Shown: positions 35,064 through 63,425 of the stretch, in pieces
Numbering within the stretch: position 1 is the stretch's first letter
How the letters are laid out: each line of letters opens with the position of its first letter
NCBI GenBank assembly: GCA_035995205.1
Contig: DASYKS010000091.1
Span: 2,085 to 66,084 of the forward strand
Origin: Thermoanaerobaculia bacterium
GTDB lineage: Bacteria > Acidobacteriota > Thermoanaerobaculia > Multivoradales > UBA5704
DNA length: 64,000 nucleotides
Reading direction: 5' to 3'
Translations under genes and position numbers: made by a program
Notes under the pieces: model-generated
What the model was told of the DNA's origin: nothing
The model's input: the letters and a program-made list of their open reading frames with translations, nothing else
Databases searched by the model: none

Positions 35064-37745
35064 TCAGCTCTGCCGAAGCGCCACCACCGGATCGAGATCC
35101 GCGGCCCGGCTGGCGGGGAGGTAGGCGGCGAGGAGTGCCGCGGCGGCCAGGAGGGCGGCGGAGAGCGCGAAGGTGGCCGGGTCGGTCGGGCTGACTTCGA
35201 AAAGGAGGGACGCCATCGAGCGGGTGAGCGCGTAGGAGGCCGCGGCGCCGAGGGCGATGCCGAGCAGGGTCGCGAGCGTGTTGTGGCCGACGACGAGGGC
35301 GAGAACGGAGCCGCGCCGCGCGCCGAGGGCCATGCGGATACCGATCTCCCTTCGACGCTGGACGACGAAGTAGTTGGTGGCGCCCCAGATCCCGACCCAC
35401 GCGAGGGTGAGCGCGAGGAGCGCGAAGGAGCCGAGAAGGAGGGTGCGGAACTGCGGCTGGGCGACCGCGTCTGCTACCAGGTCGGACATCGGTCGCGGGC
35501 GGATCACCGGCAGGGTCGGATCGACCCGGGCGAGCTCGCGACGCGCGAGGTCGGCGACCAGGGCGGGCTCGGCCGAGCTGCGGATCACCACCGAGATTCC
35601 GCGCGCCCAGTTGGAGGTAAATCCGGGGTCGAGTTGGACGTACGGAAGCAGAACCTCGGGCTTCGACGCCGCGTCGAGACCACGGTGGCGAACGTCGGCG
35701 ACGATGCCCACGACCGTTTGCCAGGGACCCTCCGGCCCGTCCACTGAGATCCGCCGGCCGATGGCGTCTCGGCCCGGCCAGTAGCGGCGCGCGAACGCCT
35801 GGTTGACCAGCGCCACGGGGAGCGCGCCGTCTCGGTCTCGGCCGTCGAAGCTCCGACCACGCAGGACCGGAATGCCCATCGCCTTGAGGTAGCCCGAACT
35901 GATGCCGTGCAGGCTGGCGGTGGGATCGCCGGCTTCGGCCGGCGGCGTGTACCCTTCGATCGAGAAGCTGTTTTCCAGATCCTGGCCGGAGAGCGGCAGA
36001 TGGGTCGTTGCGCCTACGCTCTCGAACAACGGCTGCGCCGCGAGCTGGTCGAGCAGCCGGCGCTCGAAGCTCCGCATCGCGATTGCGTCGGGAAATCGCG
36101 ACGAGGGCATCACCACGTCGAACGTCGAAGCGCCGTTTGGGTCGAATCCCAGCTCGACCCCGCGCAGGTTGGCGAAGCTCCGCACGGCAAGCCCCGCGCC
36201 GGTCAAGAGCACGAGCGAAACGGCCACCTGGGCGACGAGCGTGGCCGCGCGCAGCCGCTGATGACGCCGGCCCGTGGTAACCGAACGTCCTCGAAGCTCG
36301 GCAAGGCCTCCCGCGTCGTCCGCGGCGCGGCCGGCCGTGTCGAGCGCCGGAGCGAGACCGAAAACCAGTGCGGCGGTAAAGGAAACCAAGGTGGCGAACA
36401 GCAGCACGCGGCCGTCCAGGGCCGCCTGGTCGAGGCGCTGCAAGTCGCTCGGTCCGAACGCCTGGACCGCGCGCAGCACGCCTTGGGCGAAGACCAGCCC
36501 GGCGAGCGCGCCGAGCCCGTACAGCACCAGGGTTTCCGTCAGCAGCTGGCGGACCAGGCGGAGCTTGCCGCCGCCGAGCGCGGCGCGGGTCGCCATCTCG
36601 TTACGCCGCGCTCCGGCGCGCGCGAGTTGCAGGCTGGTGACGTTGGCGCAGGCGACAAGCAGCACGAAGCCCACCGCGCCGAGCAGGAGGTAGAGCGCGG
36701 GACGCGCGGCCCCGACGTATTCTTCGGTGAGCGAGGCCATGACGATCCCGGTATGACCGTCATTTTCCGGAAACCGCTCGGCAAGCCCACGGCCGACGGC
36801 CGAAAGGTCGGCCTGCGCCTGCTCGGGTGATACCCCCGGCTTCAACCGCCCGACCACCTGGAGGTAGCGCGACGAGCGATTGATCGGCAAACCTTCGCTC
36901 ACCCCGCGGAACGGGAATGGGGTCCACAGCTCGTAGTGCTTGTCCGGATAGGAGAAACCGGGCGGCAGCACCCCGATCACCACGAACGGTTTGTCATTGG
37001 CGATGACGGTCCGGCCGACGATCTTGGGATCGCTTCCGAAGCGGCGTTGCCAGAGCGAGTGGCCGAGCAACATCACCTGGTCGCGGCCGGTCTCGTTCTC
37101 CTCCCGGCGGAAGCGGCGGCCGAGGATCGGCTCGACGCCGAGCACGTCGAACAGCTCGGCCGAGACGACCTGGCCGAAAACCCGTTCCGGCTCCCCGCCG
37201 CCATCGCCCGCGCCCCCGGCGAGATTGAATCCGGTGCCGACGTGCGCCGCGAGCGCCGAAAACGTTCGGTTCTGGCTCTGCCAATCGAGAAAATCGAGCG
37301 GCGCCGCGCGCGTGCGCCCGACCTCCGCGGCCTCGTGATCCTGATAGAGGGCAAAGAGGCGATCGGGCTGCGGATAGGGAAGAGGGCGAAGAAGGACCGC
37401 CTCGACCACGCTCGATACGGCCGTGTTCGCCCCGATCCCGAGCGCCAAGGTGAGCATCGTGGCGAGCGCAAACCCGGGGTTCCGCCGCAAGGTTCGCAGG
37501 CCGAGCCGGGCGTCCTCGACCAGGGTCTCTAGGAACACGAAGGTGTCGGCGTCGCGCGTCCGCTCGCGCAAAACGAGCGCGTTACCCAACGCCCGCTCAG
37601 CCCGCCGGCTCGCCGCGTCGGAAGCGAGCCCTTCGGCCTCGTGCTCGCGGGCTCGCATCTCGACGTGGAACGCCAGCTCCTCATCGATCTCGCGCGCCAG
37701 GCGCCCGGGACGAATCAAATTGCCGAGCCGACCGAGAAAGGACAT
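35064..37745 (-). CDS. ADOP family ABC transporter permease (MacB-like, duplicated FtsX)
   Basis: 893 aa from MSFLGRLGNLIRPGRLAREIDEELAFHVEMRAREH. Two FtsX modules. C-terminus LDPVVALRQS. The track ORF has a 20-codon upstream extension. Confidence 0.85.
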   Translation of the reverse strand: MSFLGRLGNLIRPGRLAREIDEELAFHVEMRAREHEAEGLASDAASRRAERALGNALVLRERTRDADTFVFLETLVEDARLGLRTLRRNPGFALATMLTLALGIGANTAVSSVVEAVLLRPLPYPQPDRLFALYQDHEAAEVGRTRAAPLDFLDWQSQNRTFSALAAHVGTGFNLAGGAGDGGGEPERVFGQVVSAELFDVLGVEPILGRRFRREENETGRDQVMLLGHSLWQRRFGSDPKIVGRTVIANDKPFVVIGVLPPGFSYPDKHYELWTPFPFRGVSEGLPINRSSRYLQVVGRLKPGVSPEQAQADLSAVGRGLAERFPENDGHTGIVMASLTEEYVGAARPALYLLLGAVGFVLLVACANVTSLQLARAGARRNEMATRAALGGGKLRLVRQLLTETLVLYGLGALAGLVFAQGVLRAVQAFGPSDLQRLDQAALDGRVLLFATLVSFTAALVFGLAPALDTAGRAADDAGGLAELRGRSVTTGRRHQRLRAATLVAQVAVSLVLLTGAGLAVRSFANLRGVELGFDPNGASTFDVVMPSSRFPDAIAMRSFERRLLDQLAAQPLFESVGATTHLPLSGQDLENSFSIEGYTPPAEAGDPTASLHGISSGYLKAMGIPVLRGRSFDGRDRDGALPVALVNQAFARRYWPGRDAIGRRISVDGPEGPWQTVVGIVADVRHRGLDAASKPEVLLPYVQLDPGFTSNWARGISVVIRSSAEPALVADLARRELARVDPTLPVIRPRPMSDLVADAVAQPQFRTLLLGSFALLALTLAWVGIWGATNYFVVQRRREIGIRMALGARRGSVLALVVGHNTLATLLGIALGAAASYALTRSMASLLFEVSPTDPATFALSAALLAAAALLAAYLPASRAADLDPVVALRQS

Positions 37746-37756
37746 GGCGTCTCCCC

Positions 37757-38086
37757 TCAAGCGAATTCGAGCACCGCGGCCACACCGCGCGCGAGCCGTT
37801 GCCATTTCTCTTCTTCGACCGCGAGCTGCCTCTTGCCCTTAGCGGTCAAGCGGTAGACGCGCGCCCGGCGGCCCTTCTCCGACTCGCTCCATTCCCCTTT
37901 GAGCAGGCCCGCCTGCTCCAGCCGATGGAGCGCCGGATAGAGCGAGCCCTCTTCCACCCGCAGCAGATCCCCCGACGCCGCTTGAATATGCACCGCGATC
38001 CCGAAGCCATGAAGCGGCCCGCGTTCCAAAGTGCGCAGCACCAGTAGGTCGAGAGTTCCCTGGAGCACGTTGTCGCGCTTGCTCAT
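37757..38086 (-). CDS. PadR family transcriptional regulator
   Basis: LQGTLDLLVLRTLERGPLHGFGIAVHIQAASGDLLRVEEGSLYPALHRLEQAGLL. Classic PadR directly upstream of an ADOP permease. Confidence 0.85.
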   Translation of the reverse strand: MSKRDNVLQGTLDLLVLRTLERGPLHGFGIAVHIQAASGDLLRVEEGSLYPALHRLEQAGLLKGEWSESEKGRRARVYRLTAKGKRQLAVEEEKWQRLARGVAAVLEFA

Positions 38087-38274: not shown

Positions 38275-39261
38275 ATGAGATGGACGCCTTGGTTCCTCGT
38301 TATGGTTCTGGTCTCTTCTTCTGTATTCGCGCAAGTCGAAGTCGATCAGTGGAAAAATCTCGGTCGCGGCACGACGCTCTGGCCACAGGTCGGTCCAACC
38401 TGCTCTGGCGGGACGGCGCTAGATGGAAGCCTCGAAAACGGATATCGGGCTCTTTCTACAGCCGATGCGCGATTCGTTCAGCGCCTGACTCCGCCCACCT
38501 ATCCGTCCGGTCTAACCCGTGTCTGTGCATGTTGGATCGGCCGCGATCCTATAGATATGCCATTCAACTTTTTGATTTATGATGACGATGGACAAGGGGG
38601 AATCCCAGGCAAGTTGCTCGGCTCTGTTCCCTCAGTCGTCTCAATCCCAACGATATTCGGTCAGGAGTTCGTCGGCGAGAGTTGCGCTTTTCTCGACCTG
38701 CGTACCGAGTCAGGAGGTTTATACATCGGCGTCCAGTGGGACGCGGAAGCGTACATTGGTTTCTTCACCTGCAGCGACGAGAGCCTGACTACCCCACCGG
38801 CGAAAATGTATAGATCTAGCAATGGAGGACTGAACTGGCTTCCTGTGGCTGGTACCGTTTTCCCGAAAGCCAGAGCCCTCAGTTTTCGTGGTGAATTCGT
38901 CACTCTCGTCGATCCGGCCCCCCCTGCGGGACCGTGGTTGACCACCTCCGCGCTTCCGGGCTATCAGTTCAAATCGCAGATCGCCGGAAACCGCGCGGCG
39001 ACCCTGGTCGCGGATTGCGTGCCGGAGACGCTATGCCTCGCGGGGGCGATTCCCACCCGTGCGGAAGCCTTCGTGCGGATCATCGGCCCCCGCGGAAACG
39101 GTTTCCTGTGGCCGGAAGTGATTCGCTTCACCGTGGCCCAAGTCGAGCTCTGGATTCAGAAGACGCCGGCAGGCCCGATCAACTACTACAAACTGGCTGG
39201 AGTTTCCCAGGACAGCGACGTCCTGAACGGCCTGGTCGATCGCGAAGGTTTCTTGCCTTAG
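38275..39261 (+). CDS. Secreted hypothetical protein
   Basis: Signal peptide MRWTPWFLVMVLVSSSVFA. Lower GC. No recognised family. Its last 81 bp are duplicated at 40136-40216. Confidence 0.6.
   Translation: MRWTPWFLVMVLVSSSVFAQVEVDQWKNLGRGTTLWPQVGPTCSGGTALDGSLENGYRALSTADARFVQRLTPPTYPSGLTRVCACWIGRDPIDMPFNFLIYDDDGQGGIPGKLLGSVPSVVSIPTIFGQEFVGESCAFLDLRTESGGLYIGVQWDAEAYIGFFTCSDESLTTPPAKMYRSSNGGLNWLPVAGTVFPKARALSFRGEFVTLVDPAPPAGPWLTTSALPGYQFKSQIAGNRAATLVADCVPETLCLAGAIPTRAEAFVRIIGPRGNGFLWPEVIRFTVAQVELWIQKTPAGPINYYKLAGVSQDSDVLNGLVDREGFLP
39181..39261 (+). repeat. Direct repeat copy 1 (3' end of the secreted-protein gene)
   Basis: 81 bp, ~90% identical to 40136-40216. Both copies encode NYYKL(A/P)GVSQDSDVLNGLVDREGFLP*. 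Confidence 0.8.
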
Positions 39262-39477: not shown

Positions 39478-39813
39478 TCAGTGAAGGCAGGCGTCAACCA
39501 AGTCGAGGACGTCCTGAAGAAACTCGGCCGGCGCCCGCTCGACGAAACGGGCGCGGCGGCTGAGGTGATCGACGGACTTGACCTGCTCGACCATGACAAA
39601 ACCGGTCAGCGATGAAGAGTCCGGGAGGGGGAGGTGAAAGGGAAATCCGCGGTTTGTGTTGGTGATCGGGCAGACGATCGCCAGCCCCGTGTGCTGGTTG
39701 AAGAGATCTTTGCTGACGACCAGAGCAGGTCGGCGCCCTTTCTGTTCATGACCCGTTTGGGGGTCGAAGGAGAGGGTTACGAAATCGCCTTGCCTCGGCG
39801 TGTAGCGGGGCAC
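39478..39813 (-). CDS. MazF/PemK family type II toxin (endoribonuclease)
   Basis: MPRYTPRQGDFVTLSFDPQTGHEQKGRRPALVVSKDLFNQHTGLAIVCPITN is the PemK/MazF fold signature. Confidence 0.8.
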   Translation of the reverse strand: MPRYTPRQGDFVTLSFDPQTGHEQKGRRPALVVSKDLFNQHTGLAIVCPITNTNRGFPFHLPLPDSSSLTGFVMVEQVKSVDHLSRRARFVERAPAEFLQDVLDLVDACLH

Positions 39814-40056
39814 TTACCACTCCTCCCGCCCTACCGGAGGGCCGAATGAGATCTCCTGTGGCTGATAGTCCTTCGGGATTCGCGCGACCAAATCGGCGAG
39901 GTCGAACTTGGGTCTCGCAATCTTTCGGACGACGATCTCCCCCGCGCTCACGGTGATCTCCACGTCGTCTCCTACCGCGAGCGTGGCCAGCTGGAGCACC
40001 TGCTTTGAGATCCGCAACCCCTGGCTGTTTCCCCACTTCTGGACCTTCGCGACCAT
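39814..40056 (-). CDS. MazE/PemI-like antitoxin (AbrB/SpoVT swapped-hairpin domain)
   Basis: MVAKVQKWGNSQGLRISKQVLQLATLAVGDDVEITVSAGEIVVRKI. Directly abuts the toxin start. Confidence 0.75.
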   Translation of the reverse strand: MVAKVQKWGNSQGLRISKQVLQLATLAVGDDVEITVSAGEIVVRKIARPKFDLADLVARIPKDYQPQEISFGPPVGREEW

Positions 40057-40088
40057 TGGCGATTTCTCCCATAATCTTGTATAGCCGA

Positions 40089-40117
40089 TGTATACACGTC
40101 CGAGCCGACGGTGTCAA
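40089..40117 (-). promoter_or_regulatory. Sigma-70-like promoter for the mazEF cassette (TTGACA-N17-TATACA), with a TGTATA direct repeat at the -10
   Basis: Read on the minus strand: TTGACAccgtcggctcggacgtgTATACA. It lies ~30 nt upstream of the mazE ATG. Confidence 0.45.
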
Positions 40118-40135
40118 CGTTGTACTGCCGCTTCC

Positions 40136-40216
40136 AACTATTACAAGCTGCCCGGAGTCTCCCAGGACAGCGACGTCCTCAACGGCCTGGTCGATCGCGA
40201 AGGTTTCTTGCCGTAA
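40136..40216 (+). repeat. Direct repeat copy 2 (orphan duplicate of the secreted-protein gene 3' end), followed by a hairpin at 40227-40256
   Basis: 81 bp, ~90% identical to 39181-39261 and ending in TAA. Downstream hairpin GGCGAGTCG-N12-CGACTCGCC. The motif gacgactcgcc also follows copy 1. Confidence 0.8.
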
Positions 40217-40407
40217 AAGTTCGCGCGGCGAGTCGCTTGAGCTGAGACGACTCGCCACGTCGATCCGCCTCCGGGGGCGTTTGAGACCAGGTCCCCAGCC
40301 TTTCGTCCCTGCGCGTGCTCTCATTTTCGCCGAGCGTGGAATCATGCCCTCGTCGCACCATCCTCGACATTTCGTCAGTTTCGAGAGAGCACTAGCGGAG
40401 GTTCGTC

Positions 40408-43158
40408 ATGCCCCGGCATTTATCGCGGCGTTGGATTGCATACGTGGGTCTTCTCGCTCTTCTTGGGGCATCGACCGCCGTGGCGCAGCCGCATTTGGTG
40501 ACCGATCTCAATCAGGGGCGGGTGCCGGCCAATTTGCAACCCTTGCCGTCCGCGGGGATCGAGCAGGACGGAGTGCTCTATTTTCCTGGGCAAGATCCGC
40601 AGCACGGCTACGAGCTCTGGCGGACTGACGGCACGCCGGAAGGCACGTACCGCCTGGTCGATCTCTGCCCGGGAAGCTGTTGGGGCGGGGGCAACGGTCT
40701 AGGTTTCTTCCACGGTTTTCTCTACTTTCTGGGCAACGACCGGGAGCACGGTGTCGAGATCTGGCGCACGGACGGCACGGTAGGCGGGGAGGAATTGCTC
40801 GGGGATCTCTGCCCGGGCGTTTGCGGGACGACGCCGGGCGGGTGGGTCGAGCGGGACGGCGCTCTCTGGTTTCTCACCCAAGAGTTCGGCAAGACCCCGA
40901 TCCTTTGGACCAGCGACGGCACCCCGGCGGGGACGAGGCCGGTCGCGAACCTCTGCACCGATCTCGGCATCTGCGGCTTCGTCGATTATTCATACGCGTT
41001 CTTGGCCGGCCCGGACCCCTCCGGGCAGGGCTTCGCCCTCTGGACGTCGACCGACACCTCCGCCCTGTACCGCACCGACGGCACCGCGGCGGGTACCGTC
41101 CTCCTGCATCGCTTCACGAACGCGTTTCTCGCCTCCAAGGCGGGCGCGGACAAGCGGCTCGAAAGCTTGAAAACCTCCGTCGGACCGATCGCGCGGACGG
41201 CGGCCGAGGCCGCCGAGTCGCTCTTCTTTCTCGACGGGTTCGATCTCTGGACGAGCGACGGAACGCCCGCCGGCACCCACTTCGTGCGCAACGTCGAAGG
41301 GCTGATCGGCCTCAGCCGCTACATCCAATCGGTGCGTGTGATCGACGGGATCTGGTACGCGATCTTCGACTACGGCGATTGGCTGCGTTCGGACGGGACC
41401 GCGGAGGGGACGTTCCTCCTGGCGAAGGTGGATTCCCAATTTCGTCCGACGCTCGCGCGGATCGGCAACGCGGTATTCGCGATCACCGTGCACGGCATCT
41501 GGCGCGCGGGCGCCACCCCGGAGACCACCGTGCGCTTCGACGGGCCGGTCGGCGACGTCCTGACCGTCGTCGAGCGGCCGGGGCGGCTGTACGTCATGGG
41601 CTGGGACCGGGCCGGTTTCGTCTGGAGCACCGACGGCACCCCGGCCGGCACGCGGCGCCACCATCTGGACGGCCCGCCGAATCCGGATCAGTACGAGATG
41701 GGCGGATTCGGCGACGGCGTCTTGATCTCGGTCGGTTACCGCGAGCTTTGGCGGATCGATCTGTCCGGCGCGGAGCGGCTGCATGATTTCCAGCCGGCCA
41801 ACGGCGGTTCCGGCCCGGTCGACCAGATCGTCCTCGACGATCGCCTGCTGTTCATTTCGCTCCCCGACGCGCAAAGGGCGAAACTGTTCTCCTCCGACGG
41901 CACGACGGCCGGCACGGCGGCGATCAGTCCCTATGTGGACGGGAACTTCGGTTTCGAATTCCAGCCGGATGTCTATCGGCTCACGCGGGCCGGTCACCGC
42001 GCGTTCTTCACCACGTTCGGTCGGGTCTGGACGAGCGACGGCACGGCCGCGGGAACCCGGTCCTTCCGCCCCTCGTACAGCTCTTCGACCCACGTGATGA
42101 CCGCGCCGATCGGCGTCGTGGGCGACCGCTTCGTGTTCGGCGCGAACTTCAAGCTCTACCCGTTGCGCTGCGAACCGGGGGACACCGAGCCCTGGGTGAG
42201 CGACGGCACGCAACGCGGCACGAAACAGATCCTGGACTTGAATCCGTTCTTCCGACCGACCAACAGCTCCCAGTGCGAGACCGTGGCGGTCTCGTCGTCG
42301 CCGGGTCCCGGCGTCTCGCTCGGCTCGTTCGCCCTGTTTGCCGCCAACGATCTTGTGCACGGCCGCGAGCTGTTCGCGACCGACGGCACGAAAGAGGGCA
42401 CCCGCCTGGTCGCGGATCTGAACCCGAAGTTGATGCCGAATGCGATCACCGATCCGCCCTTGCCGGCGCTGATCGGCGTCGGCTCCGATCCGAGCGACCT
42501 GGTCCGGGCTGGGAGCCGCGCCTTCTTCGTCGCCGACGACGGGACGACCGGCCACGAGCTCTGGGTGACGAACGGCACGCGCCGCGGCACCCGGCGGGTG
42601 GTAGACCTGGTGCCTGGACCGGCAAGCTCCACGCCGCGCGACCTCGTGGCGGTCGGCGACGCGGTCTACTTCTTCGCCGCGCACGGCACGGGCGAAGGGC
42701 TTTTTCGCAGCGACGGCACGCGCGCCGGTACGGTCCTCGTGAGCGACCTGGCCGGCGCTTCTCAGGCTCGCGACCTTACCGTCGCCCGCGGCAACCTGTT
42801 CTTCGTCGCGTTCCTCCCGGAATCGGGCACGGAGCTGTGGACCTCCCGGGGCACGGCTGCCACCACCCGCGAGGTGGCCGACCTGCGCCCAGGGCCGCTC
42901 GGCTCGCAGCCGCAAAATCTGAAGGCGATCGGCGATCGGGTGGTGTTTGCGGCCGAGGACGGCACCTCCGGCCTCGAACCGTGGAGCAGCGACGGCACCG
43001 CGCAAGGCACGCTCCGCTGGGGGGATCTCGCCCCGGGCTCTGCCGCGAGCAGCCCGGGACCGTTCAGCGTCGCCCGGGGGCAGATCCTGTTCGGCGCCGA
43101 CGACGGCGAGCACGGCCGCGAGCTGTGGGCGATCCCGGTCGCCGACCTGCCGAAATGA
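40408..43158 (+). CDS. Secreted ELWxxDGT-repeat protein, paralog 1 (type B N-terminus)
   Basis: 916 aa. Signal peptide ...STAVAQPHLVTDLNQ. Three Cys pairs (DLCPGSCWGGG, DLCPGVCG, NLCTDLGICGF). About 19 units with ELWxTDGTxxGT core. C-terminus GADDGEHGRELWAIPVADLPK. GGAGG RBS. Confidence 0.85.
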   Translation: MPRHLSRRWIAYVGLLALLGASTAVAQPHLVTDLNQGRVPANLQPLPSAGIEQDGVLYFPGQDPQHGYELWRTDGTPEGTYRLVDLCPGSCWGGGNGLGFFHGFLYFLGNDREHGVEIWRTDGTVGGEELLGDLCPGVCGTTPGGWVERDGALWFLTQEFGKTPILWTSDGTPAGTRPVANLCTDLGICGFVDYSYAFLAGPDPSGQGFALWTSTDTSALYRTDGTAAGTVLLHRFTNAFLASKAGADKRLESLKTSVGPIARTAAEAAESLFFLDGFDLWTSDGTPAGTHFVRNVEGLIGLSRYIQSVRVIDGIWYAIFDYGDWLRSDGTAEGTFLLAKVDSQFRPTLARIGNAVFAITVHGIWRAGATPETTVRFDGPVGDVLTVVERPGRLYVMGWDRAGFVWSTDGTPAGTRRHHLDGPPNPDQYEMGGFGDGVLISVGYRELWRIDLSGAERLHDFQPANGGSGPVDQIVLDDRLLFISLPDAQRAKLFSSDGTTAGTAAISPYVDGNFGFEFQPDVYRLTRAGHRAFFTTFGRVWTSDGTAAGTRSFRPSYSSSTHVMTAPIGVVGDRFVFGANFKLYPLRCEPGDTEPWVSDGTQRGTKQILDLNPFFRPTNSSQCETVAVSSSPGPGVSLGSFALFAANDLVHGRELFATDGTKEGTRLVADLNPKLMPNAITDPPLPALIGVGSDPSDLVRAGSRAFFVADDGTTGHELWVTNGTRRGTRRVVDLVPGPASSTPRDLVAVGDAVYFFAAHGTGEGLFRSDGTRAGTVLVSDLAGASQARDLTVARGNLFFVAFLPESGTELWTSRGTAATTREVADLRPGPLGSQPQNLKAIGDRVVFAAEDGTSGLEPWSSDGTAQGTLRWGDLAPGSAASSPGPFSVARGQILFGADDGEHGRELWAIPVADLPK

Positions 43159-43183
43159 GATCGAGAACCCAACGGAGGGCGTG

Positions 43184-44608
43184 ATGCGAATTCAATCCTG
43201 GCGCGCGGCTTGGAGCTTCGTCTTTCTCGCTTTCGCGGGAACTTTGGCCGTCGAGGCCCAGCCGCACCTGGTCGCCGATCTCAATCAGGAAAGGGTGAAT
43301 ACCGCCTTGTCCTCCGCTTTGTCTGGAGGAGTCGAGCACGACGGCGTGGTCTATTTTGCGGGTCACGATCCGCAGCACGGCTCCGAGCTCTGGCGGACGG
43401 ACGGTACCTCGGAGGGCACCTATCGCCTGACCGATCTCTGTCCGGGGAGCAGCGGGGGCTTGGGCGAGCCCCTGGGGTTTTTTGCCGGGTACCTCTATTT
43501 CCGCGGCGACGACTGCGAGCACGGATTCGAGATCTGGCGCACGGACGGGACGGTGGGCGGAGAGGAAATGCTCGCGGAGCTCTGCACGGGAGACTGCGTG
43601 ATCGAACCCAGGAGCTGGCTCGAATGGCGAGGGGCGCTCTGGTTCCTGCTTCGGGATGCCGCCGGAACGGCGCAGGTTCTGTGGACCAGTGACGGAACCG
43701 CGGAGAACACGAGGCCTGCCGCCGACCTCTGCGCCGATCTCGGAATCTGCGACTTTGTCCCGGACTCCATTTTCCTGGTCGGGCCGAACGCGACGGGGGA
43801 GGGTCTGTTCCTCTGGGTCTATTCGACGGACAACCCCATGGGCGCGCTTTTCCGTACCGACGGCACCGCTTCCTCATCTCCCGGCCCCGGTGTCGTGGTC
43901 GGCCGGATCGCCCTGTTCCCCGCCAACGATCTGATTCATGGCCGCGAGCTGTTCGCGACCGACGGCACGAAAGAAGGCACCCGCCTCGTCGCCGACCTCA
44001 ACCGGAACCTCGAACCCAATCCGAAGTTTTATCCTCACCATCCGGAGTTCGGACCGGAGCAGGCCGGCGTCGGTTCGGATCCGAGCGATCTGGTGCGCGC
44101 GGGAAGCAATGTCTTCTTCGTTGCCGACGACGGCAGGACCGGGCGCGAGCTGTGGGTGACGAACGGCACGCGCCGGGGCACGGGTCTCGTGAGCGACCTC
44201 TCGGGCGGCTCCCAAGCGCGGGAGCTGACCCTCGTCCGCGGCAAACTGTTCTTCGCGGCGTTCCTCCGGGAGACGGGCGCCGAGCTGTGGACCTCGAAAG
44301 GCACGGCGGAGACCACCCATAGGGTGGCCGACCTGCACCCCGGACCGTTCGGCTCGCAGCCGCAGAACCTCAAGGCGGTGGGCGATCGGGTGGTGTTCGC
44401 GGCCGAGGACGGCATCTCCGGGCTCGAACCCTGGACCAGCGACGGCACCGCGGAGGGCACGCTCCGCTGGGGCGACATCGCGCCGGGCAGCGCGTCGAGC
44501 AACCCGGGGCCGTTCAGCCTGGCGAACGGCCAGATCCTGTTCGGCGCGGACGACGGCGAGCACGGGCGCGAGCTGTGGGCGATGCCGGTCGCCGAGCTGC
44601 CGCAATAG
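43184..44608 (+). CDS. Secreted ELWxxDGT-repeat protein, paralog 2 (type A, shortened by two in-frame internal deletions)
   Basis: 474 aa. Same N- and C-termini as paralog 4, but it jumps from ...ALFRTDGTA directly to SSSPGPGVVVGRIALF, and from TRRGT to GLVSDLSGGSQ. Confidence 0.75.
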   Translation: MRIQSWRAAWSFVFLAFAGTLAVEAQPHLVADLNQERVNTALSSALSGGVEHDGVVYFAGHDPQHGSELWRTDGTSEGTYRLTDLCPGSSGGLGEPLGFFAGYLYFRGDDCEHGFEIWRTDGTVGGEEMLAELCTGDCVIEPRSWLEWRGALWFLLRDAAGTAQVLWTSDGTAENTRPAADLCADLGICDFVPDSIFLVGPNATGEGLFLWVYSTDNPMGALFRTDGTASSSPGPGVVVGRIALFPANDLIHGRELFATDGTKEGTRLVADLNRNLEPNPKFYPHHPEFGPEQAGVGSDPSDLVRAGSNVFFVADDGRTGRELWVTNGTRRGTGLVSDLSGGSQARELTLVRGKLFFAAFLRETGAELWTSKGTAETTHRVADLHPGPFGSQPQNLKAVGDRVVFAAEDGISGLEPWTSDGTAEGTLRWGDIAPGSASSNPGPFSLANGQILFGADDGEHGRELWAMPVAELPQ

Positions 44609-44639
44609 AAGCCCTACCGAGAAGACGAACGGAGACGCG

Positions 44640-47387
44640 ATGAGAATCCTGCAATCCTGGCGCGCGGTGTGGTCCGTCGTCCTTCTCGCCTTCGCGGGCG
44701 CCTTGTCCGGGCTGGCCCAGCCCCGCCTCGTCCTCGATCTCAACCGAGAGAGGGGGCGATCCGTTTCGCAGCCTCGGCTGGGCTTCGAGCAGGACGGCGT
44801 CGTCTATTTTTCGGGCAACGACCCGCAGCACGGCTACGAGCTGTGGCGGACCGACGGCACGGTGGGCGGCACCTATCGTCTGACCGATCTCTGCCCGGGA
44901 CGCTGCGACGGCGGAGGACAGGCCCTCGGCTTTTTCCAGGGGTCGCTCTATTTCCTGGGCAACGATTCCGAGCACGGCACCGAGATCTGGCGTACGGACG
45001 GAACCGTCGGCGGGGAGGAGCTGCTCGCCGACGTCTGTCCGGGAATCTGTGATCTCCAGGTGAACGGCTGGGTCGAATGGCACGGGCGGTTTTGGTTCCT
45101 CGCCCAAAGAGTCTTCGGCACAGTCCTCGTCCTCTGGTCGAGCGACGGGACGCAAGAAGGAACCCGACCGGTGGCGAGTCTCTGTCGCGACCTTTCGATC
45201 TGCGAGGGCCAGGACCGCTACACGTATTTGACCGGCTCCGACCCGTCCGGACAGGGCCTCGTCCTGCGGGTGTGCGACGGCTGCGACGCGAGCTCGCTTT
45301 ATCGCACCGACGGCACCGTGGGCGGCACCGTGCTCCTGCATCGCTATGCGGCAAGAGGGTCCGACTTTGGGGAGAAGGCCACCGTTCCGCTCTATTTTCT
45401 CGACGGCTCGGACCTCTGGACCAGCGACGGAACGCCCTCCGGCACTCGCTTCGTCCGCAACCTGGACGCCCTGGTGGATTACGTCCCGTTGCGCTCTTCC
45501 GCCCAGGTGATCGACGGCACCCTGTACCTCGCGTTCGACGGCGGCGAATGGCTGCGCTCCGACGGCACGGCGGAAGGCACCGTCGTGCTGGCCGATGTCG
45601 GCCCCGGCACCGACCCGAAAATCGAGCCGATCGGCGACGCCGTCTTCGCCGTCACGTCGGAAGGAGTCTGGCGCACGGGAGGCACCCCGGAGACCACCGC
45701 CCGGCTCGATTTTCCGTTCGGCTTGATCCAGACCGTGGTCGCGCGGCCGGGCCGCCTGTTCGGCTTGAGCTACGAGGGGCAAGGGGCCTTCGTCTGGACC
45801 ACCGACGGCACGGCGGCCGGCACGCGACGGGTCCATCTTCCCCGCGGACCCAAACCGGATTTGTACGGTTTGGTGGGGTTTCTCGACGGGGTGTTGTTCT
45901 CCCGCGGCGCGCGCGAGCTGTGGCAACTGGAACCGATCGCCTCCGGCCAGGGCGGCACGGGATTCGTCGCCGAGCGGCTGCACGAGTTCCAGCCCGAAAA
46001 CGGCGGCTCCGGCCCGAGCGATCAGATCGTCTTCTCCGGCCGGCTGCTGTTCGCGTCGCTGGCCAACCCGGAAAGCCGGTGGCTGTACTCCTCCGACGGT
46101 ACCGCCGCCGGCACGACCGCGCTCCGCGCGATCGAGAACAGCCCGTATCTCGCCCCCGGCGGCGCCTACGAACCGGGGACCCCCTTGATCGCCCGCGCCG
46201 GCGCGCGGGTGTTTTTCAACACCGCGGGAGCGCTCTGGTCGAGCGACGGAACCCGCAAAGGCACCAAGGCCTGGCGCGGTTCTTCCTTCCCGAGCTTCCG
46301 GATGAACGCGCCGATCGGTTTCCTCGGCGGCCAGCTCGTTTTCTCCGCGACGGTCGACTTGGACCTCTACCCGCAGCGCTGCCCCCCCGGAGAGGCCGAG
46401 CCGTGGGTGAGCGACGGCGTTCGAAGGATGGAACGGCTGGTGAATCTCAATCCCTTCTACTACGAACCCGACGGGTTCTGCCTGAACACGGCGTATTCTT
46501 CGTCGCCCGGGCGAGGAGCCCGGATCGGCCCGATCGCGCTCTTCGCCGCGGACGATCTGGTGCACGGGCGCGAGCTGTTCGCGACCGACGGCACGAAGGA
46601 CGGAACCCGGCTGGTCGCCGACATCGACCCGCGGGTGACGCCGGTCGACGGTTCGGAGCTCTTGCCGCGCCCCCTCCACTTCTTCGGGATCGGCTCGGAC
46701 CCGAGCGACCCGGTGCGGGCGGGGAGCCTCGCCTTCTTCGCCGCGGACGACGGGACGACCGGCCGCGAGCTTTGGGTGAGCGACGGTACGAGCCGCGGCA
46801 CCCGTCAGGTGGCGGACCTGATGCCCGGCGCCGGCAGCTCTTCCCCGCGCGACCTCGTGGCGACCGGCGACGCGGTCTACTTCTTCGCCGCCAACCCCCC
46901 CGGGAGCGCCGGCACCGCGGGCGAGGGGCTCTACCGGAGCGACGGCACCCGGAGAGGCACGGTCCGGGTCGGCGACCTCGCGGGCGTTTCCGAAGCGCGG
47001 GGGCTCCAGGTCGCCGACGGCAAGCTTTTCTTCGTCGCCTACCGCCGGGAGACGGGCACCGAGCTGTGGGTCTCGGAAGGCACGGCGGAGACCACCCACG
47101 AGGTGACCGACCTGCGCCCCGGCCCGCGCGGCTCGGCCCCTCAGAACCTGAAAACGGTGGGCGGAACGGTGATTTTCGCCGCGGACGACGGCGTCTCCGG
47201 GCTCGAACCGTGGAGTAGCGACGGCACCGCGGCGGGCACGCTCCGATGGGGCGATATCGCGCCAGGGCGCGACGCGAGCGTCCCCGGTCCGTTCAGCGTC
47301 CTCGGCGGCCAGCTTCTCTTCGGTGCCGACGACGGCGAGCATGGGCGCGAGCTGTGGGCAATTTCGCTTGCTGAGCTGTCGCAATAG
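44640..47387 (+). CDS. Secreted ELWxxDGT-repeat protein, paralog 3 (type B)
   Basis: 915 aa. Signal peptide, Cys-pair region, repeat units. C-terminus GADDGEHGRELWAISLAELSQ. Confidence 0.85.
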   Translation: MRILQSWRAVWSVVLLAFAGALSGLAQPRLVLDLNRERGRSVSQPRLGFEQDGVVYFSGNDPQHGYELWRTDGTVGGTYRLTDLCPGRCDGGGQALGFFQGSLYFLGNDSEHGTEIWRTDGTVGGEELLADVCPGICDLQVNGWVEWHGRFWFLAQRVFGTVLVLWSSDGTQEGTRPVASLCRDLSICEGQDRYTYLTGSDPSGQGLVLRVCDGCDASSLYRTDGTVGGTVLLHRYAARGSDFGEKATVPLYFLDGSDLWTSDGTPSGTRFVRNLDALVDYVPLRSSAQVIDGTLYLAFDGGEWLRSDGTAEGTVVLADVGPGTDPKIEPIGDAVFAVTSEGVWRTGGTPETTARLDFPFGLIQTVVARPGRLFGLSYEGQGAFVWTTDGTAAGTRRVHLPRGPKPDLYGLVGFLDGVLFSRGARELWQLEPIASGQGGTGFVAERLHEFQPENGGSGPSDQIVFSGRLLFASLANPESRWLYSSDGTAAGTTALRAIENSPYLAPGGAYEPGTPLIARAGARVFFNTAGALWSSDGTRKGTKAWRGSSFPSFRMNAPIGFLGGQLVFSATVDLDLYPQRCPPGEAEPWVSDGVRRMERLVNLNPFYYEPDGFCLNTAYSSSPGRGARIGPIALFAADDLVHGRELFATDGTKDGTRLVADIDPRVTPVDGSELLPRPLHFFGIGSDPSDPVRAGSLAFFAADDGTTGRELWVSDGTSRGTRQVADLMPGAGSSSPRDLVATGDAVYFFAANPPGSAGTAGEGLYRSDGTRRGTVRVGDLAGVSEARGLQVADGKLFFVAYRRETGTELWVSEGTAETTHEVTDLRPGPRGSAPQNLKTVGGTVIFAADDGVSGLEPWSSDGTAAGTLRWGDIAPGRDASVPGPFSVLGGQLLFGADDGEHGRELWAISLAELSQ

Positions 47388-47412
47388 AGCCAGGAACGAG
47401 GAGGAGGACGTG

Positions 47413-50130
47413 ATGCGAATTCAATCCCGGCGCGCGGTGTGGATCGTCGTCCTTCTCGGTTTCGCGGGGGCCTTGGCACTCTCGGCCCAGCCGCACCTGG
47501 TCGCCGATCTCCATTGGGAACGGGTGCCGGCCGACTTGCAGCCTCGCCTGTCGGGGGGTGTCGAGCACGAAGGCGTGCTTTATTTTTCGGGTCACGACCC
47601 GCAGCACGGCGCCGAGCTTTGGCGGACCGACGGCACTCCGGAGGGTACCTACGCCCTGGCCGATCTCTGTCCGGGAAGCTGCGGCGGCTTGGTCGAGCCC
47701 TTGGGGTTTTTTGCCGGGCACCTCTATTTTCGCGGCGACGACCGCGAGCACGGAATCGAGATCTGGCGCACGGATGGGACGGTGGGCGGCGAGGAGCTGC
47801 TCGCCGATCTCTGCCCGGGGGCCTGCGGGACCGAACCGAGGAACTGGCTCGAATGGCGAGGGGCGCTCTGGTTCGTGATCGGCCAGGCTCTCTGGACGAG
47901 CGACGGAACCGCCGAGAACACGAAGCCGGCCGCCGACCTCTGCGGCGATCTTAAGATCTGCGGCGTTTCGCCGGAGTCCATCGTCCTGCCCGGACCGAAC
48001 GCGACGGACGAGGGCCTGTTTTTGTTGCTCTATTCGACGGACAACCCTCACGGCGCGCTCTTCCGCACCGACGGCACCGTCGCGGGCACCGTCCTTCTGC
48101 ATCGCTTCGCGAACCCGATTCTGACGGCGGCGGAGGCTTCCGGCCGATATTACTTCGTGGACGGATCGGCGCTCTGGACGAGCGACGGAACGCCTGCCGG
48201 CACGCGGTTCGTTCGAAACTTGAGTGAGCTGGTGCCCGGATTTGTCTTCGGCGTCCTGTCCAGGGTTGTCGATGGGATCTTCTACATGCTTTACGACATG
48301 GGCGACTGGTTGCGCTCGGATGGGACGGCGGCGGGCACGATCAAATTGGCGCGGTTGGATTTCTCGTACCCCGGTCGGTTCCTCATCGCGCAAATCGGCG
48401 GCGTCGTCTTCGCGGTCACCGAAGACGGGATCTGGCGCACGGAGGGCACACCCGAGACCACCGTCCGGTTCGATGCTCCCCGCAGCCAGTTCGGTCTCGT
48501 CGTCGAACGGCCGAACCGTCTCTTCGTCCAGGCCTACGACGGCAATGACTTCATCTGGAGCACCGACGGCAGCGCCAACGGCTACCGGCGGCTCCACCTG
48601 AACGGTCCTCCGGTCCCGGATCCGGAGATGGCCGGGTTCGGGGAGGGGGTGCTGATCTCGCGCGGCTATCGCGACCTGTGGCGGGTTGACGGCGCGGGGG
48701 CGGGCGCCGAGCCGGTGCACGACTTTCAGCCGGCAAACGAGGGGTCGGGACCGAGCGCGCAGGTGGTGCACGAAGACCGGCTGCTGTTCTTTTCGCTCGT
48801 CGGCCACGAGCGGTCGCAGCTCTTTTCCTCCGACGGCACCGCGGCCGGCACAGCCGCGATCGGTCCGCCGGGCTACGAATCGCCTTTCGATACCGAGAGT
48901 CCCTTCTTTCGGCCGCAGTTCCACCGGCTGACTCGCGTAGGGAGCGAAGCCTTCTTCAATGCCTTCTACGCGTCCCGGTTCTGGGCGACCGATGGAACCC
49001 GCGAGGGAACCCGGACCGTCAAGCCTGGAGCTTCGTCCTATGTGAGCTTCGGCATGACCGCGCCGATCGGCCTCGTCGGCGGTGGCTTTGTGTTCGGCGC
49101 GAACCTACGGTTCAATCCCCATGCTTGCGATTACGGGGACGCCGAGCCTTGGATTCGCGACGGCCGCGGCACGAGACAACTGGTGAATCTCAATCCTTTC
49201 AAGTACGAGAGCAGCCAGCCGCAGTGCGACAAATTGGACGCTTCCTCCTCTCCCGGCCCCGGCGTAGGGGTCGGCCGAATCGCCCTGTTCCCGGCCGACG
49301 ATCTCGTGCATGGCCGCGAGCTGTTCGCGACCGACGGCACGAAATCCGGCACCCATCTGGTCGCCGACATCAACCGGAACCTCGAACCCAATCCGGAGTT
49401 CTTTCCTCCCCATCCGGAGTACGGACCGGAGCTGGCCGGCGTCGGTTCCGACCCGACCGATCTGGTGCGCGCGGGAAGCAACGTCTTCTTCGTCGCCGAC
49501 GACGGCAGGACCGGGCGCGAGCTGTGGGTGACGAACGGCACGCGCCGGGGCACCCGGCGGCTCACGGATCTGGTGCGCGGACGGGCAAGCTCCTCGCCGC
49601 ATGACCTGGTGGCGGTCGGCGACGCTCTCTACTTCTTCGCGCCCAACCCCGGGGGCGCCGCGAGGGATGGCCTGTACAAGAGCGACGGCACGGAGGCCGG
49701 CACGATCCTGGTGAGCGACCTTTCGGGCGGCTCCCAGGCGCGGGATCTGACCCTCGTCCGAGGGAAGCTGTTCTTCGCCGCGTTCCTGCCGGAGACGGGC
49801 ACCGAGTTGTGGACTTCCGAAGGCACGGCGGCGACCACCCGCAGCGTGACCGACCTACGCCCCGGGCCGCGCGGCTCGCAGCCTCAGAACCTCAAGGCGG
49901 TGGGTGCGCGGGTGGTGTTCGCGGCCGAGGACGGCACCTCGGGTCTCGAACCCTGGAGCAGCGACGGCACCAGGGAGGGCACGGTCCGGCTGGGCGACAT
50001 CGCTCCCGGCGTCGCCGCGAGCAGCCCGGGGCCGTTCAGCGTCGCGAACGGCCAGATTCTGTTCGGCGCCGACGACGGCGAGCATGGGCGCGAGCTGTGG
50101 GCGGTGCCGGTCGCCGAGGTGGACCCTTGA
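47413..50130 (+). CDS. Secreted ELWxxDGT-repeat protein, paralog 4 (type A)
   Basis: 905 aa from MRIQSRRAVWIVVLLGFAGALALSAQPHLVADLHWERV. The type-A N-terminus has GHDPQHGAELWRTDGTPEGTYALADLCPGSCGGLVEPLGFFAGHLYFRGDD. The track ORF has a 30-codon upstream extension. Confidence 0.85.
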   Translation: MRIQSRRAVWIVVLLGFAGALALSAQPHLVADLHWERVPADLQPRLSGGVEHEGVLYFSGHDPQHGAELWRTDGTPEGTYALADLCPGSCGGLVEPLGFFAGHLYFRGDDREHGIEIWRTDGTVGGEELLADLCPGACGTEPRNWLEWRGALWFVIGQALWTSDGTAENTKPAADLCGDLKICGVSPESIVLPGPNATDEGLFLLLYSTDNPHGALFRTDGTVAGTVLLHRFANPILTAAEASGRYYFVDGSALWTSDGTPAGTRFVRNLSELVPGFVFGVLSRVVDGIFYMLYDMGDWLRSDGTAAGTIKLARLDFSYPGRFLIAQIGGVVFAVTEDGIWRTEGTPETTVRFDAPRSQFGLVVERPNRLFVQAYDGNDFIWSTDGSANGYRRLHLNGPPVPDPEMAGFGEGVLISRGYRDLWRVDGAGAGAEPVHDFQPANEGSGPSAQVVHEDRLLFFSLVGHERSQLFSSDGTAAGTAAIGPPGYESPFDTESPFFRPQFHRLTRVGSEAFFNAFYASRFWATDGTREGTRTVKPGASSYVSFGMTAPIGLVGGGFVFGANLRFNPHACDYGDAEPWIRDGRGTRQLVNLNPFKYESSQPQCDKLDASSSPGPGVGVGRIALFPADDLVHGRELFATDGTKSGTHLVADINRNLEPNPEFFPPHPEYGPELAGVGSDPTDLVRAGSNVFFVADDGRTGRELWVTNGTRRGTRRLTDLVRGRASSSPHDLVAVGDALYFFAPNPGGAARDGLYKSDGTEAGTILVSDLSGGSQARDLTLVRGKLFFAAFLPETGTELWTSEGTAATTRSVTDLRPGPRGSQPQNLKAVGARVVFAAEDGTSGLEPWSSDGTREGTVRLGDIAPGVAASSPGPFSVANGQILFGADDGEHGRELWAVPVAEVDP

Positions 50131-61161: not shown

Positions 61162-63425
61162 ATGAATAGGTTTCCCAGGCAACGAGGGTTCACGTGGCGC
61201 GCAATCTTCGGCGCCGGTCTCTTCGCCTTCGTGGGTCAAGCCGCGGTTGCGGCACCGCATCTGGTGACCGATCTCATTCGGTCGCGGGTGGGGGGCTCCT
61301 TCTACGCGGCACCGTCTCAAGGCATCGAGCAGGAGGGGGTGCTCTACTTTCCCGGGCAAGACCCCCAGCACGGCGCCGAGCTTTGGCGCTCGGACGGTAC
61401 GCCGGAGGGCACGTACCGCCTGACCGACATCTGCCCGGGGAGCTGTAGCGGCGGCGGGCGGCTGCTGGGTTTCTTCCAGGGCTCCATGCCGCCGAACTCG
61501 CCGAGCCGCTCTACTTCCTCGACGGGTTCGAGCTGTGGACGAGCGATGGAACGCCGGTCGGCACCCGCCTGGTGCGCAACCTGGAGGGGATGGTCGTCAG
61601 TCGATCTCTGAAGTCGGTTCGAGTCATCGACGGAATCTGGTACGCCACGTTCGATTACGGCGAATGGCTGCGCTCGGATGGAACCGCGGAGGGGACCCTG
61701 AAACTGGCGGATGTCGGCGATGGCTACCACCCTACGATCGCGCGAATCGGCGCTATGGTCTTCGTGGTGACCTCGGGCGGCGTCTGGCGCACCGGAGGAG
61801 CTCCGGAGACCACCGTGCGTTTCGATGCGCCGCTCGGCGCCGTCCTGACCGTCGTCGAACGGCCCCGGCGGTTGTTCGTCGCCGGTTACGTTTCGGCCGG
61901 CACGGTGTGGAGCACCGACGGTACCGCCGCCGGAACCCACCGCCATAATTTGCACGGTCGGCCGAAACCGGACCAATACGAAATGGGGGGACTGCGGAAC
62001 GGTGTGGTGATTACCCGCGGCGCCCACCGCGAGCTCTGGCGGGTCGACGAGGCGGGCGCGGAGCGCTTGTACGACTTCCAGCCGGCCAACGGCGGATCCG
62101 GCCCGTTCGACCAGATCGTCTTTGGCAAGAAACTCCTGTTCTCGTCAATGGCCGGCGCGCGAGGGTCGAAGTTGTTTACTTCCGACGGCACGGCGCCGGG
62201 CACGAGTGCGGTCAGCCCGTTCGTGGGCTATGGAGCCCGCTTGCTGACTCAAGGAGGCGGATTGGTCTTCTTCACCGCCGGAAACCGGGTTTGGAAGACC
62301 GACGGCACCCTCACGGGGACCCGCTACTTCCGGCCCGAATACGATTACTCCACGCACGAGATGACCGCTCCGATCGGCGTTCTCGGCGGCCGGTTCGTAT
62401 TCGGGGCGAATTTCAAGTTCTACCCCTTCAGCTGCGAACCGGGGGATACCGAGCCGTGGGTGAGCGACGGGACGGGCCGGGGAACAAAACAGATCCTCAA
62501 CCTCAATCCCTACGAGCAATACGGGGGCGGCAGCTCCCAGTGCTACACCGTAGACATCTCGTCGGATCCAAGCCCCGGCGTGGTGCTCGGCTCGGTCGCC
62601 CTGTTCGCGGCCGACGATCTCGTGCATGGGCGCGAGCTGTTCGCGACCGACGGCACCAAAGAGGGCACCCGCCTGGTGGCCGACTTGAACCCGAAGCTGA
62701 TGCCGAACACGATCTCCGAGCCGCCCGTTCCGGCGTTGATCGGCGTCAGCTCGAACCCGAGCGATCTGGTGCGCGTGGGGAGCCGGGCGTTCTTCTCCGC
62801 CGACGACGGCGAAACCGGGCGGGAGCTGTGGGCGACGGACGGCACGCCGCACGGCACCCGGCGGGTGGCGGACCTGATGCCCGGGCCGGAAGGATCCGCG
62901 CCGCATGGTCTATTGGCGGTGGGCGACTCGGTCTATTTTTTTGCCGCTTACGGCACAGGCGAGGGGCTCTTCAAGAGCGATGGCACTCGGGCCGGCACGG
63001 CCCTGGTGAGCGACCTGGCCGGCGCGTCGCAGACCCGAGAGCTGACCTCCGCCCAGGGCAGGCTGTTTTTCGTCGCGTACCGCCCGGCTTCGGGTACCGA
63101 GCTTTGGACCTCTGGCGGTAGCCCTGGGACCACCCACATGGTGGCCGACCTGCGCCCCGGACTGCGTGGCTCGCTGCCGCAATATCTCAAGGCGGTGGGC
63201 GAGCGGGTGATCTTCGCGGCCGATGACGGCACCACAGGGCTCGAACCGTGGAGCAGCGACGGCACCGCGGAGGGCACGCTCCGCTGGGGCGACCTCGTTC
63301 AGGGGAGAGACGCGAGCAGCCCGGGACCGTTCAGCATCGCGAACGGCCAGCTTCTCTTCGGCGCCGACGATGGCGAGCACGGCCGCGAGCTGTGGGCGAT
63401 GCCGGTGGCGGAGCTGCCGGAATAG
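61162..63425 (+). pseudogene. ELWxxDGT-repeat protein, paralog 9, disrupted by an out-of-frame internal deletion
   Basis: The N-terminal 110 aa (signal peptide, first Cys pairs) run to ...LLGFFQGS. The frame then shifts at ~61480. The homologous sequence resumes in the +1 frame at AAELAEPLYFLDGFELWTSDGTPVGT, which corresponds to residue ~270 of full-length paralogs, and runs to the normal C-terminus (ORF 61572-63425). Confidence 0.55.

Follow-up and report, generated by a model that had tools for sequence, protein, structure and literature searches.

A short, putatively secreted ELWxxDGT propeller gene in a Thermoanaerobaculia tandem array, probably functional and derived by two in-frame deletions

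The paralog array and its short member

The window analyzed here is a 64-kb stretch of DNA (64,000 nucleotides; G+C 64–72%) from a Thermoanaerobaculia bacterium. A tandem head-to-tail array of at least 10 paralogous genes, all on the + strand, extends from position 40408 to the right edge of the window; eight members are intact and the typical size is around 905–925 aa. The second gene, p2, encodes only 474 aa. The members of the array, together with the features at the start of p2, are as follows.

40408–43158, + strand: p1, array member
43174–43178, + strand: Shine–Dalgarno sequence GGAGG, 5 nt 5' of the p2 ATG
43184–44608, + strand: p2, 474 aa, in frame and uninterrupted on translation
43184–43258, + strand: predicted Sec signal peptide of p2, MRIQSWRAAWSFVFLAFAGTLAVEA followed by QPHLV, read from the sequence
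44640–47387, + strand: p3, array member
47413–50130, + strand: p4, full length, 905 aa, 18 blades, closest in-window relative of p2
50158–52884, + strand: p5, array member
52909–55626, + strand: p6, array member
55653–58337, + strand: p7, array member
58363–61137, + strand: p8, array member
61162–63425, + strand: p9, disrupted
From 63463 past the right edge of the window, + strand: p10, array member

The genes are separated by gaps of 23–35 nt, nearly every one is preceded by acGGAGG, and p2 starts 25 nt past the stop codon of p1; p2 is probably co-transcribed with its neighbours. A promoter scan of positions 39800–48000 returned no promoter-like site. Terminator-like hairpins in the same interval numbered 12, against 6.0 ± 2.5 expected, but all lie within coding sequence and we gave them no weight.

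As read from its sequence, the N-terminus of p2 has basic residues ahead of a hydrophobic helix 16 residues long, then AVEA with QP after it; the AlphaFold2 (AF2) model places a helix at residues 4–21, and the same signal-like pattern is common to all the paralogs. The C-terminal end, ...HGRELWAMP, is also retained. Between these ends we counted eight DGT cores plus the terminal ELWAMP, having discarded a spurious match (FFVADDG) and added a core that the search pattern had missed (ELWTSKGT), compared with 17 cores plus a terminal ELW in a manual count of p4. Both proteins belong to the ELWxxDGT repeat family TIGR04534 (NCBIfam; cutoff 65 bits), p2 scoring 310.5 bits over seven stretches and p4 450.7 bits over 11. 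Their units of around 47–55 aa follow the family pattern ...G.ELW.SDGT..GT..V.DI.PG...S.P..., whereas the DLCPGxC motif found here in the four N-terminal blades is missing from the family consensus. No Pfam family was matched by p2 or p4, and a PDB sequence search with p4 gave no match and no family member with a solved structure. Literature searches yielded no paper using the name 'ELWxxDGT' and nothing relevant for Thermoanaerobaculia combined with propeller. An identical 474-aa protein is present in two contig records, of 297,117 nt (JGI metagenome 3300035667) and 297,193 nt (presumably the NCBI TPA assembly), where it is labelled 'ELWxxDGT repeat protein' by JGI and 'hypothetical protein' of a Thermoanaerobaculia MAG by NCBI.

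Segments absent from p2 and their junctions

When the eight intact paralogs are aligned as proteins, p2 is collinear with the rest apart from two clean gaps. Its nucleotide identity to p4 is 86.5%, against 78–81% to the other in-window paralogs (protein identities of p2 to the paralogs in the window, 61–80%), in agreement with the original prediction that p4 is its nearest relative in the window. A scan of metagenome contigs for related arrays further retrieved a full-length ortholog of p2, encoding 909 aa, at 4921–7650 of contig L002 (Ga0268264_10000928). All 1425 nt of p2 align to this gene in three gapless blocks (683 + 310 + 432 nt) at 89.2% identity and with no further indel. Across all of its 474 residues p2 is 86% identical to the L002 protein, which in turn is 76% identical to p4; other ortholog pairs between the window and its relatives share 83–95% of their amino acids, a range that includes the p2/L002 value. 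The blocks, the segments of p4 without a counterpart in p2 and the two junctions are listed below.

43184–43866, + strand: block N, corresponding to L002:4921–5603, 683 nt, 89.0% identity, blades 1–4, the fourth strand of blade 4 being absent
43867–44176, + strand: block M, corresponding to L002:6759–7068, 310 nt, 93.5% identity, parental blades 13–14
44177–44608, + strand: block C, corresponding to L002:7219–7650, 432 nt, 86.3% identity, parental blades 16–18 and the stop codon
48078–49238, + strand: deletion 1 segment of p4, 1161 nt, 387 aa, absent between 43866 and 43867 of p2
49549–49698, + strand: deletion 2 segment of p4, 150 nt, 50 aa, absent between 44176 and 44177 of p2
43867–43869, + strand: junction 1, 3-nt overlap CGC, the last base of the T228 codon and the first two of A229
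44177–44185, + strand: junction 2, with the direct repeat GGCAC (44177–44181) belonging to the xxGT codons of a pair of neighbouring cores

Judged by the DNA alignment to p4 and by the three blocks of the L002 gene, the missing segments are thus absent rather than divergent, as had been predicted. The predicted pair of in-frame deletions and both junction peptides were recovered as well, although the sizes had been put at about 380 and 55 aa, compared with the 387 and 50 aa measured against p4. Against the L002 gene, deletion 1 amounts to 1155 nt (385 codons) and deletion 2 to 150 nt (50 codons). In terms of p4, deletion 1 comprises the fourth strand of blade 4, blades 5–12 and the Cys-containing linker ahead of SSSPGPG, while deletion 2 comprises exactly one repeat unit, blade 15.

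To place p2 among its relatives, we built a neighbour-joining tree from 17 genes (453 shared columns, 200 bootstraps). The L002 gene and p2 form a clade in 200 of 200 bootstraps, this pair joins p4 in 200 of 200 and then the p6 group, and every leaf other than p2 is full length. Because p2 groups with the full-length L002 gene among leaves that are otherwise all full length, its short form is derived, and both deletions arose in the lineage of the window after its split from the L002 organism. The converse, in which p2 would have kept an ancestral short form and the long paralogs would owe their extra blades to insertion, would sit well with the single-ring proteins of 9–10 blades that are common in the wider family. 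It is scarcely credible here, given that p2 is nested with full support inside the full-length clade, and that the supposed insert is homologous and collinear in p4 and the L002 gene; the same pair of insertions would have had to originate repeatedly.

A search for a short-form ortholog among metagenome contigs and GTDB genome contigs found none. Four apparent cases were rejected on inspection: L005 and L007 are joined pieces of full-length genes, L080 is a contig-end fragment and L085 is a decayed pseudogene. A protein-database search with p2 listed at least 120 matches; the in-window paralogs were not among them and the search was not used for orthology. Among the matches listed, the only one of high identity to p2 was p2 itself. 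Gene order in these arrays is scrambled between relatives, and further deletions occur in p9 and L085.

The two junctions differ in kind. At junction 1 the left flank reads ...GACGGCAC-CGC-CGCGGG, inside DGT|AAGT, and the right flank ...TTGGA-CGC-TTCCTC, at LDA|SSSPG; p2 reads GGCAC-CGC-TTCCTC. The flanks overlap by 3 nt in the L002 gene and by 2 nt in p4 and are otherwise unrelated. The right breakpoint lies just 5' of SSSPGPG, and from there it is 31 codons to the next DGT. Deletion 1 is consequently out of repeat register: the fused unit is some 18 residues short, and the fourth strand of blade 4 is gone. At junction 2, both breakpoints fall inside xxGT codons, the core-to-core spacing is 150 nt in the L002 gene and in p4 alike, and exactly one unit is lost with codon phase kept and about 5 nt of microhomology. 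One codon, GGT (Gly334, 44183–44185), matches neither parental flank, the right one having ATC (Ile) and the left one Arg codons, which may reflect an imprecise join or a substitution that came later. The sequences of p2 that span the junctions are ...FRTDGTASSSPGPG... and ...NGTRRGTGLVSDL....

The original prediction had set both junctions at the recurring DGTxxGT core and had proposed unequal recombination between repeat units. Three of the four breakpoints do fall in a core, the exception being the right breakpoint of deletion 1, and the proposed mechanism could apply to deletion 2 at most. Breakpoints at equivalent positions of two units were found for deletion 2 and not for deletion 1, and a shared near-identical tract of tens of nucleotides was found at neither. 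Repeat cores are only around 60–80% identical over 33–64 nt and no long identical tract exists in the gene; the longest exact run common to the flanks of deletion 2 is 7–8 nt (ACGGCAC in the L002 gene, ACGGCACG in p4). A run of this length is too short for classical homologous recombination, which is therefore unlikely even for deletion 2, and slippage on short direct repeats better describes it; replication slippage or a short-homology exchange is the likely route. Deletion 1 joins a core to a non-core site across a 3-nt CGC overlap with no flank homology, and for these reasons we infer an illegitimate, microhomology-type deletion rather than unequal recombination between units. RecA-independent deletion between short direct repeats, by replication slippage or illegitimate recombination, is textbook knowledge. 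The p2 junctions resemble such events in their overlaps of 3 and about 5 nt and in the lack of long identical tracts, whereas a span of 1155 nt on a 3-nt overlap lies at the rare end of slippage and the Gly334 codon is also atypical. The locus does not qualify as a contingency or phase-variable repeat locus, its repeats being diverged and the deletions irreversible.

Two further origins of the short gene bear on these junctions. In the first, p2 would be a chimera formed by unequal crossing-over between neighbouring paralogs rather than by deletion within one gene. That array gene order differs between relatives indicates that recombination between genes occurs, and block C is equidistant from the two candidate parents (86.0% to the L002 gene, 85.8% to p4). 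In the same comparison, however, blocks N and M are 89.5% and 93.9% identical to the L002 gene, against 82.6% and 90.9% to p4, block C has no closer paralog or relative than these two genes, and the flanks of junction 1 lack homology. Since one and the same L002 gene is the nearest relative of both block N and block M, deletion 1 was intragenic, with no crossover between neighbouring paralogs, and we regard a chimera as highly improbable. In the second, the short gene would result from misassembly, through collapse or chimera formation among tandem paralogs or repeats that resemble one another, as might be feared in a metagenome assembly of a repetitive array. Yet overlaps of only 3 and about 5 nt offer no shared k-mer on which an assembler could jump, and paralogs 14–22% apart in DNA are easily resolved. 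Moreover, both sides of each junction come from one ancestral gene, with blocks N and M closest to the L002 gene, and the identical protein recurs in two contig records. An artefact is accordingly very improbable, and intragenic deletion is the reading that we retain below.

Constraint on p2 and the predicted fold of its product

The dN/dS between p2 and the L002 gene is 0.33. When p4 serves as the outgroup, dN on the p2 branch is 0.039 and dS 0.098, a ratio of around 0.40 that compares with about 0.28 for the L002 gene, about 0.35 for p4 and 0.23–0.51 for pairs across the family. The p2 branch has thus been under purifying selection, although the deletions cannot be dated within it and, if they are very recent, the low ratio reflects the full-length ancestor and not the short form.

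An AF2 model of p2, built on a 127-sequence alignment, is compact and all-beta (pLDDT 85.8, pTM 0.80), with the lowest core confidence, 71–75, around junction 1. It contains 36 strands in the DSSP assignment, enough for nine four-stranded blades, and the p4 model (pLDDT 87, pTM 0.74) contains about 72 strands in 18 groups of four. Foldseek retrieved only propellers for both proteins, with a probability of 1.0. In the p2 model the N-terminal strand lies at residues 28–31 and the last blade is three-stranded (pTM 0.80), as read from strand counts rather than from the coordinates. Together, strand counts, pTM and homology suggest that p2 may form a single closed nine-blade ring. The best structural fits of p2 were the 10-blade Vps10p rings of sortilin and SorLA (TMq 0.42–0.48), and those of p4 were double propellers (TMq up to 0.34, GH74 4lgn), with LRP6 among the multi-propeller matches; at such low TM scores and with 8–14% identity, these PDB matches speak for fold class only and not for homology or shared function.

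Rings of the size predicted for p2 occur naturally in the family. Single-ring ELWxxDGT proteins of Archangium comprise P0100 (490 aa, nine cores) and P0079 and P0120 (around 546–547 aa, 10 cores). They resemble p2 in size class, in an N-terminal '..L[VL].D[IL]' strand and in a C-terminal 'HGxELWALP' end. They differ from it in being only around 35% identical and in having no recent deletion origin, whereas p2 reached the nine-blade size secondarily from an 18-blade parent; they also appear to be lipoproteins, with a Cys after the signal sequence as read from the sequence. Propellers of 4–12 blades arise and change through amplification of blade units (Kopec and Lupas, 2013, PMC3797127; Afanasieva et al., 2019, PMC6805158; Pereira and Lupas, 2022, PMC9218822). 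These papers stress amplification, whereas p2 represents blade loss, with one of its two events out of blade register.

The most serious challenge to a working p2 accepts the deletions but sees in the gene a dead remnant in decay, its frame open only because stop codons are rare at high G+C; an open frame at 68% GC is indeed weak evidence of function. Decay is known in the immediate surroundings and among relatives: p9 (61162–63425) carries a frameshifting deletion of around 478 nt, and the solitary relative L085, from another Acidobacteriota MAG, is full of deletions and frameshifts. By comparison, p2 shows no other indel against the L002 gene over 1425 nt, its branch dN/dS is near 0.40 rather than 1, and two independent, unselected deletions would both be in frame with a chance of 1/9. 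Blade 4 of p2 has lost its outer strand and model confidence dips at that point, but a compact fold is still confidently predicted as a whole, and the Shine–Dalgarno sequence and signal peptide are intact. Similarly, the conserved CPGxC motif in blade 1 has lost one of its Cys residues in p2, but a new Cys in DDCEHG leaves the number of Cys even. The short form is kept in no other genome searched, so that its long-term retention is unproven. Taken together, we consider a dead remnant unlikely, though with a real chance of being right.

We therefore favour a functional gene. The original prediction had the reading frame, signal peptide and C-terminal tail kept, and all three were found in place (the signal peptide as predicted), along with the GGAGG site. 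Its suggestion that a shortened product is plausible gains from the purifying selection and the confidently predicted fold. The product is probably functional because the Shine–Dalgarno sequence, signal peptide and frame are kept, dN/dS is around 0.4, the model is confident and natural relatives with nine or 10 blades exist; p2 probably makes a functional secreted or periplasmic binding scaffold, as predicted from these features. The deletions with their direction, coordinates and junction sequences, and the purifying selection on the branch, are direct results; how the deletions came about at the molecular level, that the ring closes and that the product is secreted and functional are what we infer.

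Origin of the short propeller and its meaning for the family

In the explanation that we consider likely, p2 is a real, derived, short secreted ELWxxDGT propeller that arose by two intragenic deletions from one 18-blade ancestor, with a product that is probably functional. That ancestor would have been an 18-blade gene of around 909 aa resembling the L002 ortholog. After the lineages split, two separate intragenic deletions removed 385 and 50 codons. In deletion 2, misalignment of short direct repeats (ACGGCAC...GGCAC) in adjacent DGTxxGT cores probably cost the gene one unit, and in deletion 1 eight blades and one strand were lost as a core was joined to a non-core site via the 3-nt overlap. 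Both events kept the reading frame, and the remaining four and five blades would pack into one compact nine-blade domain.

The span of deletion 1 also points to a possible architecture of the full-length proteins. Its left end sits immediately upstream of the variable linker behind blade 4, the site of a 22-aa insertion in p1 and its orthologs, and its right end coincides with the end of the variable Cys-linker that leads into blade 13; the N-terminal PHLVADL of p2 is a 'fourth-strand' motif. Since an N-terminal strand must meet the three-stranded C-terminal blade to close a ring, the parents would probably have an outer ring made of their N- and C-terminal parts, with a middle ring inserted. 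We tentatively propose a nested double-propeller arrangement for the 18-blade parents, a reading that is possible but that we hold with more doubt than belief. Under such a model, an outer ring of ten blades (1–4 plus 13–18), closed by the N-terminal strand, would be split by a second ring inserted into it, made of the eight blades 5–12. Deletion 1 would remove the inserted ring almost exactly, deletion 2 would leave the ten-blade outer ring with nine blades, and the ancestral single-ring architecture would be restored.

Viewed broadly, p2 is an ordinary size change in a repeat protein; the family, changes in blade number and deletion at short repeats were all known already. What is specific to p2 is a well-resolved case with a full-length ortholog, in which an event that ignored the repeat register still left a product that is confidently foldable according to its model. 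For annotation, the 474-aa gene is neither a fragment nor a miscall. More generally, p2 makes a base-by-base case, against a full-length ortholog, of a large repeat protein that halves in two steps and apparently stays viable, and it indicates that blades can be lost in frame at sites other than repeat boundaries. If the nested-ring idea is true, p2 and its ortholog would form a natural experiment on propeller modularity, with p2 as a natural domain excision that restored the ancestral single-ring architecture of the family, and the array would be a site of continual diversification of secreted binding proteins.

Array extent and upstream neighbourhood

The array of tandem ELWxxDGT-repeat genes (p1 to p10, numbered along the plus strand) reaches the right-hand end of the window, where the start of a further paralog brings it to at least 10 members.
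63463-64000, continuing past the window end, plus strand: p10, the tenth paralog, which begins MRLLPFRRAFWIVFLVAFAGALAGQAQPHLVADLN...

Upstream of the array, four loci were annotated between 35064 and 40056, the first of which we read from sequence as a putative duplicated FtsX-type ABC permease.
35064-37805, minus strand: 913-aa open reading frame, putative permease, with no recorded Pfam match
37757-38086, minus strand: PadR-type regulator
38275-39261, plus strand: secreted protein of 328 aa that matches no family
39478-39813 and 39814-40056, minus strand: PemK/MazE toxin-antitoxin pair

A frameshifting deletion in p9

The array that holds p2, the short paralog with two in-frame deletions, carries a second deletion, which is frameshifting.
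61162-63425, plus strand: p9, array paralog with an internal deletion and a change of frame

The 5' part of p9 is normal, with an MNRFPRQRGF... start, a signal peptide and blade 1, and near 61481-61486 blade 2 (GFFQGS) passes into blade 5 (AEPLYFLDGFELW) in a shifted reading frame. Compared with p1, its closest paralog (79% nucleotide identity), p9 lacks around 478 nt, a length that is not divisible by 3. With such a frameshift, p9 is likely to be a pseudogene or a split gene.

A lone, heavily decayed relative of the p6 group was found in the Acidobacteriota MAG cluster4_bin.160.
L085:7900-9341: decayed ELWxxDGT gene flanked by unrelated metabolic genes

Multiple frameshifts interrupt this gene, and large stretches have been deleted from its interior, GSDPSDPVLAG|VSQARDL being one example. 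Its deletion junctions are not those of p2.

Local sequence changes in p2, p4 and p1

In blades 1-2 of p2 (43430-43520), the motif DLCPGSS is unique to this paralog, as all other paralogs and the L002 ortholog (the full-length p2 counterpart on metagenome contig L002) have DLCPGxC, and p2 reads DDCEHG where the others read DD[RS]EHG. One cysteine has been lost and one gained around 20 residues apart, leaving an even count, and the two changes may represent a re-paired disulfide. Directly 3' of the junction of the 150-nt deletion in p2, the GGT (Gly) codon at 44183-44185 matches the right-flank ATC (Ile) of the L002 ortholog and p4 at none of its three positions, and is also unlike the left-flank Arg codons. 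Either the new blade boundary has undergone a multi-step substitution or the join was imprecise.

Smaller length variants were also observed. Blade 3 of p4 (47876-47884) is shorter than its counterparts in p2 and the L002 ortholog through the in-frame loss of 18 nt (6 aa), and reads WFVIGQALW in place of WFLLRDAAGTAQVLW. The linker after blade 4 of p1 (41090-41200) has an extra segment of around 22 aa (SKAGADKRLESLKTSVGPIARTAAEA...), common to p1 and its orthologs on L004, L005 and L081. The large deletion in p2 starts at this same variable site.

Gene order among relatives

We compared the array with metagenome contigs L002, L003, L004, L005 and L007 and with Thermoanaerobaculia MAGs L078-L084. 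Clear orthologs of p1, p3, p5, p6 and p8 were present in these relatives (73-95% amino-acid identity), and no p4 ortholog was seen among them. In the window the genes run p1-p2-p3-p4-p5-p6-p7-p8; L005/L002 carry p1-p5-p3-(p2 ortholog)-p6, L004 carries p1-p8 and L007 carries p8-p3-p5. The order of the array is rearranged among close relatives.
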